Source of the DNA: Eledone cirrhosa
Taxonomy: Eukaryota
Length of the DNA: 64,000 nt
Assembly: GCA_964016885.1 (NCBI GenBank)
Contig: OZ024742.1
Location: 5,518,001 to 5,582,000 of the forward strand
Reading direction: 5' to 3'
Each line of letters opens with the position of its first letter. The first letter of the stretch is position 1. The notes beneath the pieces are model-generated. The model saw only the letters and a program-made list of their open reading frames with translations. It searched no databases and was not told the DNA's origin. A program made the translations under genes and the position numbers. Positions 2,866 to 63,892 of the stretch are shown here, piece by piece.

Positions 2866-2934
2866 ATGTATGAATAAACACAACTATTTCAGTCTACCCA
2901 ATATCACCGACAAGTCATTGGTTACCTTGAGATT

Positions 2935-3275
2935 ATGGTGTTACACTGTGACAGAACACAGATCCTCGTGTTTGTTTATGGTGTTACACTGTGACAGAAC
3001 ACAAATCCTCGTGTTTGTTTATGGTGTTACACTGTGACAGAACAGGGATCCTTGTGTTTGTGTATGGTGTTACACTGTGACAGAACACATATCCTCGTGT
3101 TTGTTTATGGTGTTACACTGTGACTCAACACAGATCCTCGTGTTTGCTTATGGTGTTACATTGTGACAGAACACAAATCCTCGTGTTTGTTTATGGTGTT
3201 ACACTGTGACAGAACACAAATCCTCGTGTTTTTTATGGTGTTACACTGTGACAGAACACACTTCCTCGTGTTTGT
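2935..3275. repeat. 43-bp minisatellite, about 8 copies, inside the left arm of an inverted duplication
   Basis: Unit tatggtgttacactgtgacagaacacagatcctcgtgtttgtt; period 2941 to 2984. Confidence 0.92.
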
Positions 3276-3470
3276 GATGCGATCTCGCCTGCGTCTATTG
3301 AAAGAGAAGGAAAAAATTACTAAATAAAAATTATCCGAAACAAAAAAAAAAAAGCTATCGTAAAATTGATAAAAAACATAGTTTACAACACAGGTGTTGG
3401 GCTGACGACTATTAATGATTATGACAAAAACTGTAAAAAAATATTGTACATATAAAATATTGTACATATA

Positions 3471-3660
3471 TAATTGTTTCTACTTTAAGCACAAGGCCAG
3501 CAATAACCCAGTGCATTACTGGTACTTTATTTTATCGACCCCGTAAGGATGAAAGGCAACGTTAACCTTGACGGGATTTGAACTCAGATCGTAAAGGGAC
3601 GTAACTATGCTGGAAAGCATGGCGTCCGACCCTCTACCGATACTGCCAATCCACCACCCT
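3471..3660 (-). mobile_element. tRNA-derived SINE
   Basis: Minus strand reads TGGCAGTATCGG (A-box-like) ... GAGTTCAAATCC (B-box), then GCCTTTCATCCTTACGGGGTCGATAAAATAAAGTACCAG; several copies in the window. Confidence 0.88.
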
Positions 3661-4508
3661 AGCATGGAGTCCGACCCTCTACCGATACTGCCAATCCACC
3701 ACCCTAGCATGGCGTCCGACCCTCTACCGATACAGCCAATCCACTGCCCTAGCATGGCGTCCGACCCTCTACCGATACTGCCAATCCACCACCCTAGCAT
3801 GGCGTCCGACCCTCTACCGATACTGCCAATCCACCACCCTAGCATGGCGTCCGGCCCTCTACTGATACTACCAATCCACCGCCCTAACATGGCGTCCGAC
3901 CCTCTACCGATACTGCCAATCCACCACCCTAGCATGGCGTCCGACCCTCTACCGATACTGCCAATCCACCGCCCTAACATGGCGTCCGACCCTCTACCGA
4001 TACTGCCAATCCACCGCCCTAACATGGCGTCCGACCCTCTACCGATACTGCCAATCCACCACCCTAGCATGGCGTCCAACCCTCTACCGATACTGCCAAT
4101 CCACCGCCCTAACATGGCGTCCGACCCTCTACCGATACTGCCAATCCACCGCCCTAACATGGCGTCCGACCCTCTACCGATACTGCCAATCCACCACCCT
4201 AGCATGGCGTCCGACCCTCTACCGATACTGCCAATCCACCGCCCTAACATGGCGTCCGACCCTCTACCGATACTGCCAATCCACCGCCCTAACATGGCGT
4301 CCGACCCTCTACCGATACTGCCAATCCACCACCCTAGCATGGCGTCCGACCCTCTACCGATACTGCCAATCCACCGCCCTAACATGGCGTCCGACCCTCT
4401 ACCGATACTGCCAATCCACCGCCCTAACATGGCGTCCGACCCTCTACCGATACTGCCAATCCACTGCCCTAACATGGCGTCCGACCCTCTACCGATACTG
4501 CCAATCCA
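3616..4508 (-). repeat. 45-bp tandem array (about 20 copies) derived from the SINE 5' head
   Basis: Unit agcatggcgtccgaccctctaccgatactgccaatccaccaccct is essentially identical to the SINE head at 62701-62745. Confidence 0.95.
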
Positions 4509-4800
4509 AGGCCCAACACCTGCGTTGTAAACTATGTTTTTCTTTTCAGCTTTACGATAGCTTTTTTAATTATTTTTTGTTTCGGATAATTTTTTTTAGT
4601 AATTTTTTCCTTCTCTTTCAATAGACGCAGGCGAGATCGCATCACAAACACGAGGATTTGTGTTCGGTCACAGTGTAACACCATAAAAAAAAACACGAGG
4701 ATCTGTGTTCTGTCACAGTGTAACACAATAATTTCAAGGTAACCAATGACTTATCGGTGATATTGGGTAGACTGAAATAGTTGTGTTTATTCATACATAC

Positions 4801-10244: not shown

Positions 10245-10251
<7 letters not shown>

Positions 10252-11197
10252 GATATTAATAAATGGAAACTATATTTATAAAACCATATTTATTTCATTA
10301 TACATATTTCAGGGATACCAAATTAAATTATGGTATGCCTTCATCAGACAAAATACAATATATAACAGTTTTACAAATAAGCTTTGACGTACCCTATTAA
10401 AATGCAACCATTGTTTTGGGAAGTCATCCGGATAGTGAATTGTTTATATAACTTTAATAAGTCATAGTGTTAAGGACAATTAGAAAAAGACGGAGAGAAA
10501 GAAAAAAGACGGAGAGAAAGAAAAAACGTGGAGAAATATCGGAGAGAGAGAGAGATGTATGGAGAAAAAAAGAAAGAGATAGGTAAAGACAGGAGGAAAG
10601 GAAGAAAGAAGAAAAAAGGAAGAAATAAGAAAAACAGAGGAAAGCAACAGAGAGATATTAGGTCAACAGACAGATAGAAAAACTCAAGAGAGAGAAATGT
10701 TATATATAGAGAGAGGGAGATTATGAAAACTTTACGTCATGTCATGTTAAGTTGAGTTAACAATTCATATGAAATGAATAATAAAAATATAAATATTAAT
10801 ATTCATGAATGGGACATAGATATATAATATGAGAAATTAAACATTGTTTAATAATGACTATATGTTTAGTTTAAAACTTGAGAGCGATGCCTGATGACGC
10901 ACGCAGATATTTATTTATACATATATAGGTGTATATGTATATATGTGTGTGTATGTATATGTGTGGGTAAAAGTTATGTTGCATAACCACGCAGTTTGGA
11001 TTGCAGAAATGTTAAATGCATGAATGGTAATCATATATACGAAGTCATGCATGTTAATCGTATATATTTATGTGTATATATACTGTGAACTTTTTATAAT
11101 ACAACGAATGTATAGCAATGATTAAGAGAAATCGTCTGCGCTTTATATGTCTATATTGTTGACTTGAGTAAATATAATTTCTATTTTCAGGACGTGC

Positions 11198-11251
<54 letters not shown>

Positions 11252-11995
11252 GTATCTTTGCCTGAGATACTTTTCTAGCAATGTGTACATTTTGGAGATT
11301 AAACCCAAATTTTGGTATATTGATCTCAAGGTTTAAACTAAACATATAGTCATTATTAAACAATGTTTAATTTCTCATATTATATATCTATGTCCCATTC
11401 ATGAATATTAATATTTATATTTTTATTATTCATCTCATATGAATTGTTAACTCAACTTAACATGACATGACGTAAAGTTTTCATAATCTCCCTCTCTCTC
11501 TATATAACATTTCTCTCTCTTGAGTTTTTCTATCTGTCTGTTGACCTAATATCTCTCTGTTGCTTTCCTCTGTTTTTCTTATTTCTTCCTTTTTTCTTCT
11601 TTCTTCCTTTCCTCCTGTCTTTACTTATCTCTTTCTTTTTTTTCTCCATGCATCTCTCTCTCCGATATTTCTCCACGTTTTTTCTTTCTCTCCGTCTTTT
11701 TTCTTTCTCTCCGTCTTTTTTCTTTCTCTCCGTCTTTTTTCTTTCTCTCCGTCTTTTTCTAATTGTCCTTAACACTATGACTTATTAAAGTTATATAAAC
11801 AATTCACTATCCGGATGACTTCCAAAAACAATGGTTGCATTTTAATAGGGTACGTCAAAGCTTATTTGTAAAACTGTTATATATTGTATTTTGTCTGATG
11901 AAGGCATACCGTAATTTAATTTGGTATCCCTGAAATATGTATAATGAAATAAATATGGTTTTATAAATATAGTTTCCATTTATTAATATCGTATA
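10245..11995. mobile_element. Inverted duplication (arms about 10245-10880 and 11330-11995) of a PLE pLTR-like repeat with HHR-like core
   Basis: Arms are near-perfect reverse complements of about 640 bp; CTGATGA-AGGCATACC...GGTATCCCT-GAAA at 11895; same family as 58805-61680. Confidence 0.85.
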
Positions 11996-51800: not shown

Positions 51801-51997
51801 TGTAGCTACAGTAATGTGTGTGTGTGAGACTGTAGCTACAGTATTGTGTGTGTGTGTGTGTGACTGTACCTACAGTATTGTGTGTGTGTGTGTGACTGTA
51901 GTTACAGTATTGTGTGTGTGTGTGAGACTGTAGCTACAGTATTGTGTGTGTGTGTGTGACTGTAGCTACAGTATTGTGTGTGTGTGTGACTGTAGCT
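34913..51997. repeat. 17 kb compound satellite: palindromic core ACTGTAGCTACAGT + ATT + variable (TG)n; roughly 500-550 units (estimate)
   Basis: Direct reading; unit about 25-50 bp depending on (TG)n length; variant cores (ACTGTAACT, ATTGTAGC, ACTGAAGC) recur in blocks. Confidence 0.98.
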
Positions 51998-52121
51998 TAC
52001 TCATCTTTTTGTGCGTGAATTCGATGATTTGGACAGAAATTTATTGAGCCTTTTACTGATAAACATAATCTATATATATTAAATGTATTGATTGAACCTA
52101 AAATTGACTCATGTATATATA

Positions 52122-52565
52122 TATTAGAACTGGTGCTCTGAAATAGCTATATATATATGAATGTATATACAGTGTATTTTGCAATACACTGTATGCTTTA
52201 TTAATAGCATTTTGAAGACATTACGCTATTGTTTTAAAATAGTAACTTTGTCACTATTTCAGAGCACCAATTCTAATTTTCAATTTTTGCTGGACGGTCA
52301 ACCGGTCTGTATAATCAGTTCCTGATTATTACTGCAATTCTATAAGAATCCAACATTCAAAATTTCCAGCAGGCAAAGCGGGTACTAAGCTCTGAGGAGT
52401 ACCAACAGTACGAAACAGAGATCTGTCAGCTTATCTCCCTTTGTTTGCTGAAAAAAGAAGTAAGTGACATAGTCACTACTTTAAAACAATAGCGTAAGGT
52501 CTTCAAAATGCTATTAATTAAGCATACAGTGTATTGCAAAATACACTGTATACACATTCATATAT
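52122..52565 (+). mobile_element. Diverged retrozyme-like monomer (about 52255-52565) preceded by an inverted partial copy (52122-52255)
   Basis: 52155-52255 is the reverse complement of about 52462-52565; HHR at 52392; shares tttcagagca, cagttcctg, ttctataag and ggtcttcaaaatg with the 311-bp unit. Confidence 0.85.
52386..52433 (+). ncRNA. Type I hammerhead ribozyme
   Basis: TAAGCT-CTGAGGA-GTAC-caaca-GTAC-GAAA-CAGA-ga-TCTG-TC-AGCTTA: three perfect stems and a GUC cleavage site at 52427. Confidence 0.92.
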
Positions 52566-52579
52566 ATATATATATATAT

Positions 52580-52941
52580 ATATGTGAATATAGACATAGA
52601 ATATTCGAAAATATTCTGTATGTTTATAATAAACATTTTGAAGACCTAATCGCTATAGAATAGAATACGTCACGTATTACAACTAGATTCTCGATAAAAG
52701 CAAGGGAAGTAAGTCTACGCGTTTCATTCTTGTTAGAATTCATCAGGACTACATATCCAGTGCTTTCATCGAGAATGACACAGCTAGAGACTTATAGAAT
52801 ACTTAGCTGTGTACAGGAACTGGTTTGAAAGAGCGGTTGCCGGTCCGGCAGAAATTAGAAATTGGAATAAATGCTCTGAAATAGCGATATATATGTGAAT
52901 ATAGACATAGAATATTCGAAAATATTCTGTATGTTTATAAT
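52580..52941 (-). mobile_element. Inverted copy (about 1.15 units) of the 311-bp HHR monomer
   Basis: Reverse complement of the array unit; HHR on the minus strand at about 52709-52752 (gtaagtctacgcgtttcattcttgttagaattcatcaggactac). Confidence 0.93.
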
Positions 52942-52949
52942 CAAAATTA

Positions 52950-55900
52950 TCTTCAAAATGTTTATTATAAACATACAGAATATTGTCGAATATTCTATGT
53001 CTATATTCACATATATATCGCTATTTCAGAGCATTTATTCCAATTTCTAATTTCTGCCGGACCGGCAACCGCTCTTTCAAACCAGTTCCTGTACACAGCT
53101 AAGTATTCTATAAGTCTCTAGCTGTGTCATTCTCGATGAAAGCACTGGATATGTAGTCCTGATGAATTCTAACAAGAATGAAACGCGTAGACTTACTTCC
53201 CTTGCTTTTATCGAGAATCTAGTTGTAATACGTGACGTATTCTATTCTATAGCGATTAGGTCTTCAAAATGTTTATTATAAACATACAGAATATTTTCGA
53301 ATATTCTATGTCTATATTCACATATATATCGCTATTTCAGAGCATTTATTCCAATTTCTAATTTCTGCCGGACCGGCAACCGCTCTTTCAAACCAGTTCC
53401 TGTACACAGCTAAGTATTCTATAAGTCTCTAGCTGTGTCATTCTCGATGAAAGCACTGGATATGTAGTCCTGATGAATTCTAACAAGAATGAAACGCGTA
53501 GACTTACTTCCCTTGCTTTTATCGAGAATCTAGTTGTAATACGTGACGTATTCTATTCTATAGCGATTAGGTCTTCAAAATGTTTATTATAAACATACAG
53601 AATATTTTCGAATATTCTATGTCTATATTCACATATATATCGCTATTTCAGAGCATTTATTCCAATTTCTAATTTCTGCCGGACCGGCAACCGCTCTTTC
53701 AAACCAGTTCCTGTACACAGCTAAGTATTCTATAAGTCTCTAGCTGTGTCATTCTCGATGAAAGCACTGGATATGTAGTCCTGATGAATTCTAACAAGAA
53801 TGAAACGCGTAGACTTACTTCCCTTGCTTTTATCGAGAATCTAGTTGTAATACGTGACGTATTCTATTCTATAGCGATTAGGTCTTCAAAATGTTTATTA
53901 TAAACATACAGAATATTTTCGAATATTCTATGTCTATATTCACATATATATCGCTATTTCAGAGCATTTATTCCAATTTCTAATTTCTGCCGGACCGGCA
54001 ACCGCTCTTTCAAACCAGTTCCTGTACACAGCTAAGTATTCTATAAGTCTCTAGCTGTGTCATTCTCGATGAAAGCACTGGATATGTAGTCCTGATGAAT
54101 TCTAACAAGAATGAAACGCGTAGACTTACTTCCCTTGCTTTTATCGAGAATCTAGTTGTAATACGTGACGTATTCTATTCTATAGCGATTAGGTCTTCAA
54201 AATGTTTATTATAAACATACAGAATATTTTCGAATATTCTATGTCTATATTCACATATATATCGCTATTTCAGAGCATTTATTCCAATTTCTAATTTCTG
54301 CCGGACCGGCAACCGCTCTTTCAAACCAGTTCCTGTACACAGCTAAGTATTCTATAAGTCTCTAGCTGTGTCATTCTCGATGAAAGCACTGGATATGTAG
54401 TCCTGATGAATTCTAACAAGAATGAAACGCGTAGACTTACTTCCCTTGCTTTTATCGAGAATCTAGTTGTAATACGTGACGTATTCTATTCTATAGCGAT
54501 TAGGTCTTCAAAATGTTTATTATAAACATACAGAATATTTTCGAATATTCTATGTCTATATTCACATATATATCGCTATTTCAGAGCATTTATTCCAATT
54601 TCTAATTTCTGCCGGACCGGCAACCGCTCTTTCAAACCAGTTCCTGTACACAGCTAAGTATTCTATAAGTCTCTAGCTGTGTCATTCTCGATGAAAGCAC
54701 TGGATATGTAGTCCTGATGAATTCTAACAAGAATGAAACGCGTAGACTTACTTCCCTTGCTTTTATCGAGAATCTAGTTGTAATACGTGACGTATTCTAT
54801 TCTATAGCGATTAGGTCTTCAAAATGTTTATTATAAACATACAGAATATTTTCGAATATTCTATGTCTATATTCACATATATATCGCTATTTCAGAGCAT
54901 TTATTCCAATTTCTAATTTCTGCCGGACCGGCAACCGCTCTTTCAAACCAGTTCCTGTACACAGCTAAGTATTCTATAAGTCTCTAGCTGTGTCATTCTC
55001 GATGAAAGCACTGGATATGTAGTCCTGATGAATTCTAACAAGAATGAAACGCGTAGACTTACTTCCCTTGCTTTTATCGAGAATCTAGTTGTAATACGTG
55101 ACGTATTCTATTCTATAGCGATTAGGTCTTCAAAATGTTTATTATAAACATACAGAATATTTTCGAATATTCTATGTCTATATTCACATATATATCGCTA
55201 TTTCAGAGCATTTATTCCAATTTCTAATTTCTGCCGGACCGGCAACCGCTCTTTCAAACCAGTTCCTGTACACAGCTAAGTATTCTATAAGTCTCTAGCT
55301 GTGTCATTCTCGATGAAAGCACTGGATATGTAGTCCTGATGAATTCTAACAAGAATGAAACGCGTAGACTTACTTCCCTTGCTTTTATCGAGAATCTAGT
55401 TGTAATACGTGACGTATTCTATTCTATAGCGATTAGGTCTTCAAAATGTTTATTATAAACATACAGAATATTTTCGAATATTCTATGTCTATATTCACAT
55501 ATATATCGCTATTTCAGAGCATTTATTCCAATTTCTAATTTCTGCCGGACCGGCAACCGCTCTTTCAAACCAGTTCCTGTACACAGCTAAGTATTCTATA
55601 AGTCTCTAGCTGTGTCATTCTCGATGAAAGCACTGGATATGTAGTCCTGATGAATTCTAACAAGAATGAAACGCGTAGACTTACTTCCCTTGCTTTTATC
55701 GAGAATCTAGTTGTAATACGTGACGTATTCTATTCTATAGCGATTAGGTCTTCAAAATGTTTATTATAAACATACAGAATATTTTCGAATATTCTATGTC
55801 TATATTCACATATATATCGCTATTTCAGAGCATTTATTCCAATTTCTAATTTCTGCCGGACCGGCAACCGCTCTTTCAAACCAGTTCCTGTACACAGCTA

Positions 55901-56161
55901 AGTATTCTATAAGTCTCTAGCTGTGTCATTCTCGATGAAAGCACTGGATATGTAGTCCTGATGAATTCTAACAAGAATGAAACGCGTAGACTTACTTCCC
56001 TTGCTTTTATCGAGAATCTAGTTGTAATACGTGACGTATTCTATTCTATAGCGATTAGGTCTTCAAAATGTTTATTATAAACATACAGAATATTTTCGAA
56101 TATTCTATGTCTATATTCACATATATATCGCTATTTCAGAGCATTTATTCCAATTTCTAAT
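52950..56161 (+). mobile_element. Tandem array of 311-bp HHR-containing units (10 full + about 0.3), retrozyme-like
   Basis: tcttcaaaatg recurs at 52950, 53261, 53572, 53883 ... 56060 (period 311); each unit has one HHR; no ORF of 60 aa or more. Confidence 0.95.
53153..53196 (+). ncRNA. Type I hammerhead ribozyme (first of ten, repeated every 311 bp)
   Basis: GTAGTC-CTGATGA-ATTC-taacaa-GAAT-GAAA-CGCG-TA-GAC(t)TAC; predicted cleavage after GUA at 53189. Confidence 0.9.
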
Positions 56162-56175
56162 ATATATATATATTT

Positions 56176-63231: not shown

Positions 63232-63892
63232 TGTCGCTCAAAATAAACTCTTCGGTCAATGATCGCGCAAGTCTTAAAACAATGTGCACTTTTCGTCGCT
63301 CAAAATACCCCCAGGGCATCATTGCTCAAGTCTTAAAACAATGTGCACTTTTCGTCGCTCAAAATACCCCCCAGGGCATCATTGCTCAAGTCTTAATACA
63401 ATGTGTACTTTTCGTAGCCCAAAATACGCCCAGGGCATCATTGCTCAAGTCTTAAAACAATGTGTACTAGTTCGTCGCTCAAAATACCCCCAGGGCATCA
63501 TTGCTCAAGTCTTAATTCAATGTGTACTTTTCGACGCTCAAAATACGCCCAGGGCATCATTGCTCAAGTCTTAATACAATGTGTACTTTTCGTCGCTTAA
63601 AATACCCTCAGGGCATCATTGCTCAAGTCTTAATACAATGTGTACTTTTTGTCGCTCAAAATACATTCTTTCCCAGGTTATCATTACTCAAGTCTTAATA
63701 CAATGTGTAATTTTCGTCGCTCAAAATACCCCCAGGCCATCATTGCTCAAGTCTTAAAACATTGTGTACTAGTTCGTCGCTCAAAATACCCCCAGGGCAT
63801 CATTGCTCAAGTCTTAATACAATGTGTACTTTTCGTCGCTCAAAATACACTCTTTCCTAGGTTATCATTGCTCAAGTCTTGATACAATGTGT
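63232..63892. repeat. About 59-64-bp minisatellite, about 11 copies
   Basis: Unit cagggcatcattgctcaagtcttaatacaatgtgtacttttcgtcgctcaaaatacccc. Confidence 0.93.

Follow-up and report, generated by a model that had tools for sequence, protein, structure and literature searches.

Structure of the locus

The window, a stretch of 64,000 nucleotides of the Eledone cirrhosa genome, carries at 52950-56161 a tandem array that TRF describes with a period of 311, 10.3 copies and 99% matches. Nine of the ten full units are identical, and unit 1 differs by one substitution, at 52985. The 311-bp unit is non-coding, with a GC content of 0.33-0.35, and no ORF of at least 120 aa was found in a search of 52950-56161. 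An earlier, sequence-only reading of this DNA had noted an exact 311-bp period, ten units and no ORF, and TRF, unit comparison and ORF search bore this out. Its hammerhead motif likewise recurs as written in 10/10 units, with the predicted cut after 53189+311n. That reading was correct about the array at 52950-56161, but it missed an inverted arm at 52576-52948, the two fixed ends, the (AT)n target and the size of the family. The complete insertion spans 52576-56161, and both of its outer ends lie inside (AT)n. Its landing place was the right-hand (AT)n of an older insertion of a related family, which we call family B. The features are as follows, with short and long ends defined below.

52120-52551, no strand: older family B insertion, consisting of a short inverted arm with a long end and a direct arm with a short end; hammerhead at 52392-52427
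52552-52575, no strand: left (AT)n target remnant
52576-52948, minus strand: inverted arm, ~1.2 units; its outer end, of the short type, lies at phase 131-140 after the cut and passes into (AT)n
52709-52752, minus strand: hammerhead of the inverted arm, the eleventh; core from 52746, predicted cut after 52716
52942-52949, no strand: head-to-head arm junction, 8 bases without an exact match to either arm
52950-56161, plus strand: direct arm with 10.33 copies of the 311-bp unit; long-type outer end at phase 173
53130-53144 with 53203-53217 (span 53130-53217), plus strand: 15-bp stem in the predicted fold, extending helix I across the cut; 8/15 pairs with two-sided changes
53153-53196, plus strand: type I hammerhead in unit 1, recurring at 311-nt intervals; predicted cut after 53189
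53153-53158 with 53190-53196, plus strand: hammerhead helix I; core at 53159-53165, helix II at 53166-53179
53190-53500, plus strand: predicted 311-nt monomer or circle, cut to cut
53283-53311, plus strand: AU-rich hairpin in the predicted fold, just 5' of the short end; formed in families B and C too
53321-53355, plus strand: 35-nt tail bounded by putative RT start sites at phases 131 and 166; its conservation among related families is strong
56162-56172, no strand: right (AT)n target remnant
27310-27690, plus strand: relative from family C, 1.2 units (unit length 310 bp) flanked by (AT)n tracts; hammerhead at 27518-27551

The hammerhead motif and its conservation

Tandem type I hammerhead repeats such as newt satellite 2, schistosome Sm-alpha and Dolichopoda pDo500 are transcribed, self-cleave and can circularise. 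The motif in the Eledone unit has an A-U pair at the base of helix II, GAAA, a two-pair palindromic helix III and GUA, and our descriptor matched only 1/3000 dinucleotide-shuffled units. A search against Rfam, which had been proposed as a check on the hammerhead, lent it no support: the array gave 0 matches at the gathering score, and the best sub-threshold match, Hammerhead_HH9, scored 17.8 bits (E 0.37), the cut-off being 52. Matches to miRNA families at 52834-53071 in the same search were below threshold and arose from the palindromic junction, and we discarded them. The low Rfam score counts against the ribozyme reading, as does the base of helix II, which is A-U or U-U and not G-C. A similar helix II base occurs in axolotl HHR_Amex2, the monomer of which cleaves weakly (PMC7229834). 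For hammerheads with a two-pair helix III and a palindromic loop, cleavage as dimers has been reported and a sparing of monomeric circles proposed (PMC4209133). A 2026 preprint, however, found no cleavage in 8/9 retrozyme dimers (Li, Clavereau, Pollet 2026, bioRxiv 10.64898/2026.07.22.740005), and the activity of the present hammerhead therefore cannot be assumed.

We then compared 19 sequences from family A, to which the array belongs, and its relatives B and C. The hammerhead core is invariant save at N7. Helix I, helix II and the 15-bp stem together are 94.7% paired, compared to 42-47% for slid control pairings, and two-sided changes occur in 16/26 pairs. Because the 19 sequences form only three lineages, and the structure was drawn from those same sequences, these changes amount to few independent covariation events. 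Twenty propagated variants of family A include none at the 12 invariant core positions, though several lie within the hammerhead, an observation that is weak when taken alone. The comparison supports the view that the ribozyme fold has been kept by compensatory change in families A, B and C. The monomer folds with a z score of -4.0 when linear, circular folds gave z scores of -4.1 and -5.8, and constraining the fold to contain the hammerhead costs 0.4-1.5 kcal/mol. In these folds the stem 53130-53144/53203-53217 would keep both ends of a monomer together.

Size and age of the family

The hammerhead of the window's 311-bp unit has 1,144 exact matches in the 3.0-Gb genome. For a commoner 310-bp subfamily, a 29-mer that spans the cut has 14,634 exact matches and 17,068 with one mismatch, the latter count being dominated by haplotypes and providing no per-site control. 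Family A totals ~18,000 units, equal to ~5.6 Mb or 0.19% of the genome. From the junction counts (1,208 short-end matches, some of them internal, and 790 forward long-end matches) and a mean of 10 units per insertion, we estimate ~1,600-1,800 insertions. The units stand head to tail at many dispersed loci, with no internal segment and no LTR/PBS/PPT layout. A genome-wide count had been suggested for the array, and it places the array in a dispersed family of this size. The insertions are young: 377 full units show 44 deviations from the majority of their locus, seven of which are haplotype differences, and insertions differ from their own majority unit at ~3 in 10,000 sites. Families B and C are older, with more than 2,300 candidate places each and best copies that are 91-95% identical. 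The identification of the array as a candidate retrozyme is thus supported by dispersed, young, non-coding tandem units and by a covarying type I hammerhead.

Ends and junctions of the insertions

We examined 66 insertions, numbering positions in the unit (phases) from the predicted ribozyme cut. Fifty were two-armed with both outer ends visible, nine were single-armed, and seven with one end masked or outside the fetched stretch were set aside. Of the fifty two-armed loci, 24 had been selected regardless of their ends, 17 by the short end and 9 by the long end. The 116 outer ends fall into two clusters, with 57 at phase 126-140 (short, mode 131) and 58 at phase 157-173 (long, mode 166); one end lies at 118. 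Every complete two-armed locus has one short and one long end (50/50, comprising 37 hand-tallied loci and 13 added later), and for the first 37 the probability of this outcome under independent 50:50 choice is 7e-12. The nine single-armed insertions among the 66 count against a two-ended reading. Families B and C follow the end rule in ~8/11 two-armed loci, the other three being blurred by loose alignments.

An (AT)3 motif lies within 20 nt beyond the outer end in 113/116 cases, and target-site duplications are unreadable inside such (AT)n tracts. Because the short site coincides in part with an AT run of the unit, the position of the short end is blurred by up to 9 nt; pairing with the target at this run may help priming there. 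The hairpin at 53283-53311 is a candidate RT-binding stem-loop in the fold model.

At 54 inner junctions, the arms overlap by at least 2 nt in 25 and by 0-1 nt in 8, and are separated by filler in 21. Unrelated sequence was captured between the arms in locus L056 (1599-1870, 272 nt) and locus L064 (3030-3083, 54 nt). Copying of one arm from the other by fold-back is disfavoured, both because the longer arm may carry either type of end (17 versus 20) and because changes confined to a single unit have no mirror image in the other arm.

Arm lengths, haplotypes and the template

The lengths of 74 arms from 37 loci fit an exponential distribution with a mean of 5.0 and a maximum of 17.9 units. Arms with a short end are neither longer nor shorter than those with a long end, and the lengths of the two are uncorrelated (rho 0.13). 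Inner ends are distributed uniformly round the unit (KS p 0.73), and only 1/74 lies within 5 nt of the cut, where 2.4 are expected, indicating that the RT passes the cut site without pausing. At the seams, the first base after the cut differs in 6/14,640 cases, near the background rate, and this rules out the idea of a ligation scar, in which errors would gather at that base.

Both arms carry the same haplotype in 47/48 loci, compared to 9% across loci, with 22 haplotypes in all, and locus-private variants are present in all units of the two arms (e.g. L053, L059, L065, L156). Since haplotypes and private variants are shared throughout an array, a new variant must go through one unit and then re-expand. 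In mechanistic terms, a circle gives this passage and re-expansion in one step, though the concordance of the arms could also come from one source dominating a cell. Exceptions exist. One arm of L061 switches part-way to the haplotype of the other arm, and in L055, L056 and L155 a single-unit variant is repeated in two units; multimeric templates or later local duplication do occur. Among loci L021-L045, variants at phases 119 and 260 appear in all four combinations, implying recombination or recurrent change among templates.

Contigs from 4/6 listed sequencing runs of unspecified kind were compared with the unit and set aside as evidence. Runs X4 and X5 each gave one 340-nt contig (310+30), which a tandem repeat would give as readily as a circle. 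In run X1, possibly the source sample, depth is very high and the arms meet head to head at many different phases. Judged from the genomic copies, the template was probably a circular monomer. The rolling-circle origin first suggested for the multimer thus gains indirect support from seams, inner ends, arm lengths and haplotypes, with a transcript, its self-cleavage and a circle as putative steps.

Relation to Penelope-like elements

Penelope-like elements (PLEs) insert into (TA)n targets and leave a 5'-truncated copy in inverted orientation, with one end bearing a tail of 30-40 bp (PMC8557442, PMC3846280). A PLE protein cuts AT-rich DNA and extends both strands from two internal start sites that bound the tail (PMC11167929). 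The anatomy of the Eledone insertions matches, and we are highly confident that the unit is mobilised in trans by PLE enzymes. This assignment rests on anatomy because none of five PLE families shares pLTR sequence with the unit. The genome contains at least four young two-ORF PLE families with open RT/GIY-YIG frames of 775-796 aa, together with one older, distant family. We searched for a parent in five families (777, 775, 796, 768 and a second 775 aa), taken from the top-scoring protein matches, so that more families are possible; in none does the pLTR show homology to the unit. The sequence-only reading had allowed that the unit might be simply the pLTR of an autonomous PLE, which these five families do not bear out. 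A PLE protein match was present in 10 of 67 fetched stretches, the nearest 163 bp from an element.

In three families, the 3' ends of autonomous PLEs fall at two alternative sites each (434-437/476, 540/601 and 668/704), in microsatellites. Insertions of the 777-aa family have one end of each kind wherever both were seen. The tail of the 775-aa family, at 61 nt, is longer than the described 30-40 nt, and its long end is preceded, at a distance of ~180 nt, by a minimal hammerhead. In the 796-aa family the tail measures 36 nt and closes with a similar short motif, a resemblance too weak for us to base a claim of parentage on it. In the young families (L083, L100, L108, L166) an upstream ORF of ~410-480 aa overlaps the RT/GIY-YIG ORF; the one such ORF that we tested had no Pfam match. 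The window itself contains pieces of two PLE families, 5'-truncated and including GIY-YIG domains, at 25748-26449 and 13682-14620, both on the minus strand.

An antisense template has been discussed to account for PLE structure (PMC3846280). In the Eledone insertions both RNA-sense 3' ends face outward, so priming twice on sense RNA is enough to account for the head-to-head arrangement, and no antisense template is needed.

A model for insertion and its alternatives

We consider it likely that the unit is a non-autonomous non-LTR retrozyme that employs a PLE RT/GIY-YIG protein in trans, with reverse transcription from both target ends and most likely round a circular monomer. The arrays would be transcribed, and their hammerheads, probably paired as dimers via the palindromic helix III, would release monomers of 310-311 nt. 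Held by the 15-bp stem, the monomer ends would be ligated to form circles. A PLE nuclease would open the (AT)n tract, which is the target observed, and both target ends would prime reverse transcription on sense RNA at phases ~131 and ~166, where the ends are seen. Each RT would then lap the circle with a constant drop-off rate, for ~5 laps on average, as the observed length law suggests. The inner ends of the two cDNAs are joined via microhomology or short filler, leaving two divergent arms. We advance only tentatively, as something quite possible, the more specific proposal that a single PLE complex carries out each insertion, with two RT subunits making several laps each of a ribozyme-made circle from two non-interchangeable sites 35 nt apart.

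The same two-ended insertion by a PLE could instead have copied an uncleaved linear multimeric transcript, with the ribozyme rare or otherwise employed. Hammerhead mutations did not reduce insertion by a PLE, and uncleaved RNA was the main substrate in vitro (PMC11167929). The block-mixed arm of L061 and the repeated variants in L055, L056 and L155 also favour such a template, and uniform inner ends and clean seams are equally compatible with it. However, a daughter arm could never outgrow its source, so lengths would shrink with each generation, yet 22 haplotypes in 48 loci keep arms of up to 17.9 units. Private variants fixed in every unit of both arms, and a core and end-joining stem conserved with compensatory changes, argue in the same direction, and we regard a linear multimer as unlikely. 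Less probable still is a cleaved linear monomer, its ends clamped by the 15-bp stem, across whose gap the RT jumps repeatedly without ligation. The stem would indeed bring the ends together, and the one-unit bottleneck would be explained, but the cut shows no surplus of stops or of substitutions, and there is no indel at the seams of 377 units.

We give very little credence to the idea that one inserted pLTR-like monomer expanded on the spot into a satellite through unequal crossover. Local growth has been proposed (bioRxiv 10.64898/2026.07.22.740005), and the three arms with a variant in two units indicate that some local duplication happens. Against this, both arms are usually multimeric (89% of the 74 arms exceed one unit) while only ~3 in 10,000 sites depart from the majority, and in the older families B and C the copies that match best are short ones and not long ones. 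Most improbable of all are two readings, that the unit is nothing more than an autonomous PLE's pLTR and that the palindromes are assembly artefacts. The layout, with a hammerhead 130-180 nt before the end, does resemble that of the 775-aa PLE family, and further PLE families may exist, but the lack of homology in five families and the distance to the nearest PLE match speak against these readings, as do flanks without mirroring and ends that differ by a fixed offset.

Comparison with known systems

The unit has every testable feature of a non-LTR retrozyme and, judged by its insertions, behaves like a non-autonomous PLE. Metazoan non-LTR retrozymes from coral, mussel and axolotl (Cervera and de la Pena 2020, PMC7229834; review, PMC7761336) share its tandem organisation (units of 150-450 bp) and a GC content below 50%. 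One type I hammerhead per unit, a weak palindromic helix III, a self-paired monomer and co-resident PLEs are also common to both (PMC7229834). Circles have been shown in those systems, where mobilisation by PLEs is a proposal. A term search of the main text of PMC7229834 found no mention of divergent arms, of two fixed ends or of an (AT)n target. Retrozyme repeats are described as showing no motif that points to their partner (PMC7761336). The retrozymes of vertebrates (Li, Clavereau, Pollet 2026) are similarly non-autonomous and PLE-dependent, with units of ~300 bp, and that case was built on co-occurrence and pLTR homology, with local amplification invoked. For the Eledone unit we found no pLTR homology, and it is the insertion anatomy that points to PLE enzymes and to arrays that were multimeric at birth.

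EN+ PLEs (PMC8557442, PMC3846280; Poseidon PAc, PMC11167929) resemble the family in their inverted 5'-truncated arm, their 30-40-bp tail at one end, their (TA)n or AT-rich target and their two RT start sites downstream of a hammerhead. The Eledone element differs in being a 310-bp unit without an ORF and in its strict rule of one short and one long end, whereas no strand difference in start site was reported in vitro. Non-autonomous Chlamys elements such as MRC1 are likewise PLE dependants with multicopy head-to-tail insertions (PMC8557442), but the MRC1 kind resembles its autonomous partner at the 3' end, and the clade is said there to have no canonical hammerheads. Plant LTR retrozymes have a type III hammerhead in LTRs, a PBS, a PPT and a 4-bp TSD, in contrast to the type I hammerhead and the absence of an LTR layout in the Eledone unit.

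The retrozyme class, its link to PLEs and the rolling-circle model are thus already in print as proposals. In the literature searched, which mostly left subscription papers outside, we found no two-armed insertions, tail or two-end rule for retrozymes. Published proposals for the movement of animal retrozymes invoke PLEs and circular templates, and we did not find insertion-level evidence in them. A family this young and numerous allows ends, arm lengths and haplotypes to be counted, and the counts favour PLE priming at both target ends and multimeric birth. It also makes rolling-circle target-primed reverse transcription directly testable, offering a substrate of 310 nt, two start sites already mapped and four candidate enzymes that are intact. 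The strict end rule is a constraint on PLE mechanism in general, and ~5.6 Mb of near-perfect inverted arrays may carry weight for genome stability and double-stranded RNA. If the proposal of one complex, two sites and a circle is correct, these insertions would prove, from the genome itself, that circular RNAs made by hammerheads serve as templates for chromosomal insertion in an animal, and the inverted-repeat-plus-tail structure of PLEs would be explained without an antisense template. In that case, a viroid-sized RNA would recently have written ~1,700 long palindromes into one genome.

Other features of the window

No tRNA was found in the 64-kb window, and a bacterial promoter scan, irrelevant here, gave hits at chance level. 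A 17-kb satellite at 34913-51988 consists of ~503 copies of a ~34-bp unit, with (TG)n round a short palindromic core and strong strand skew. An open LINE-type ORF of 1152 aa at 16378-19839 (minus strand) encodes endonuclease, RT and zinc-binding domains. Minisatellites lie at 2933-4731, 15106-15348, 23507-23813 and 63268-63892, with periods of 43-45, 84, 61 and 59. In the flanks of loci L090, L103, L104, L112, L113, L119 and L048 we came by chance upon further hammerhead families, some of them short and paired, which suggests that the hammerhead load of the genome is very large. An unrelated two-armed element at 10250-11995 has arms of ~700 bp and divergent hammerheads (10347 on the minus strand, 11895 on the plus strand), and hammerheads like these recur in L081, L096, L097, L169 and L171.
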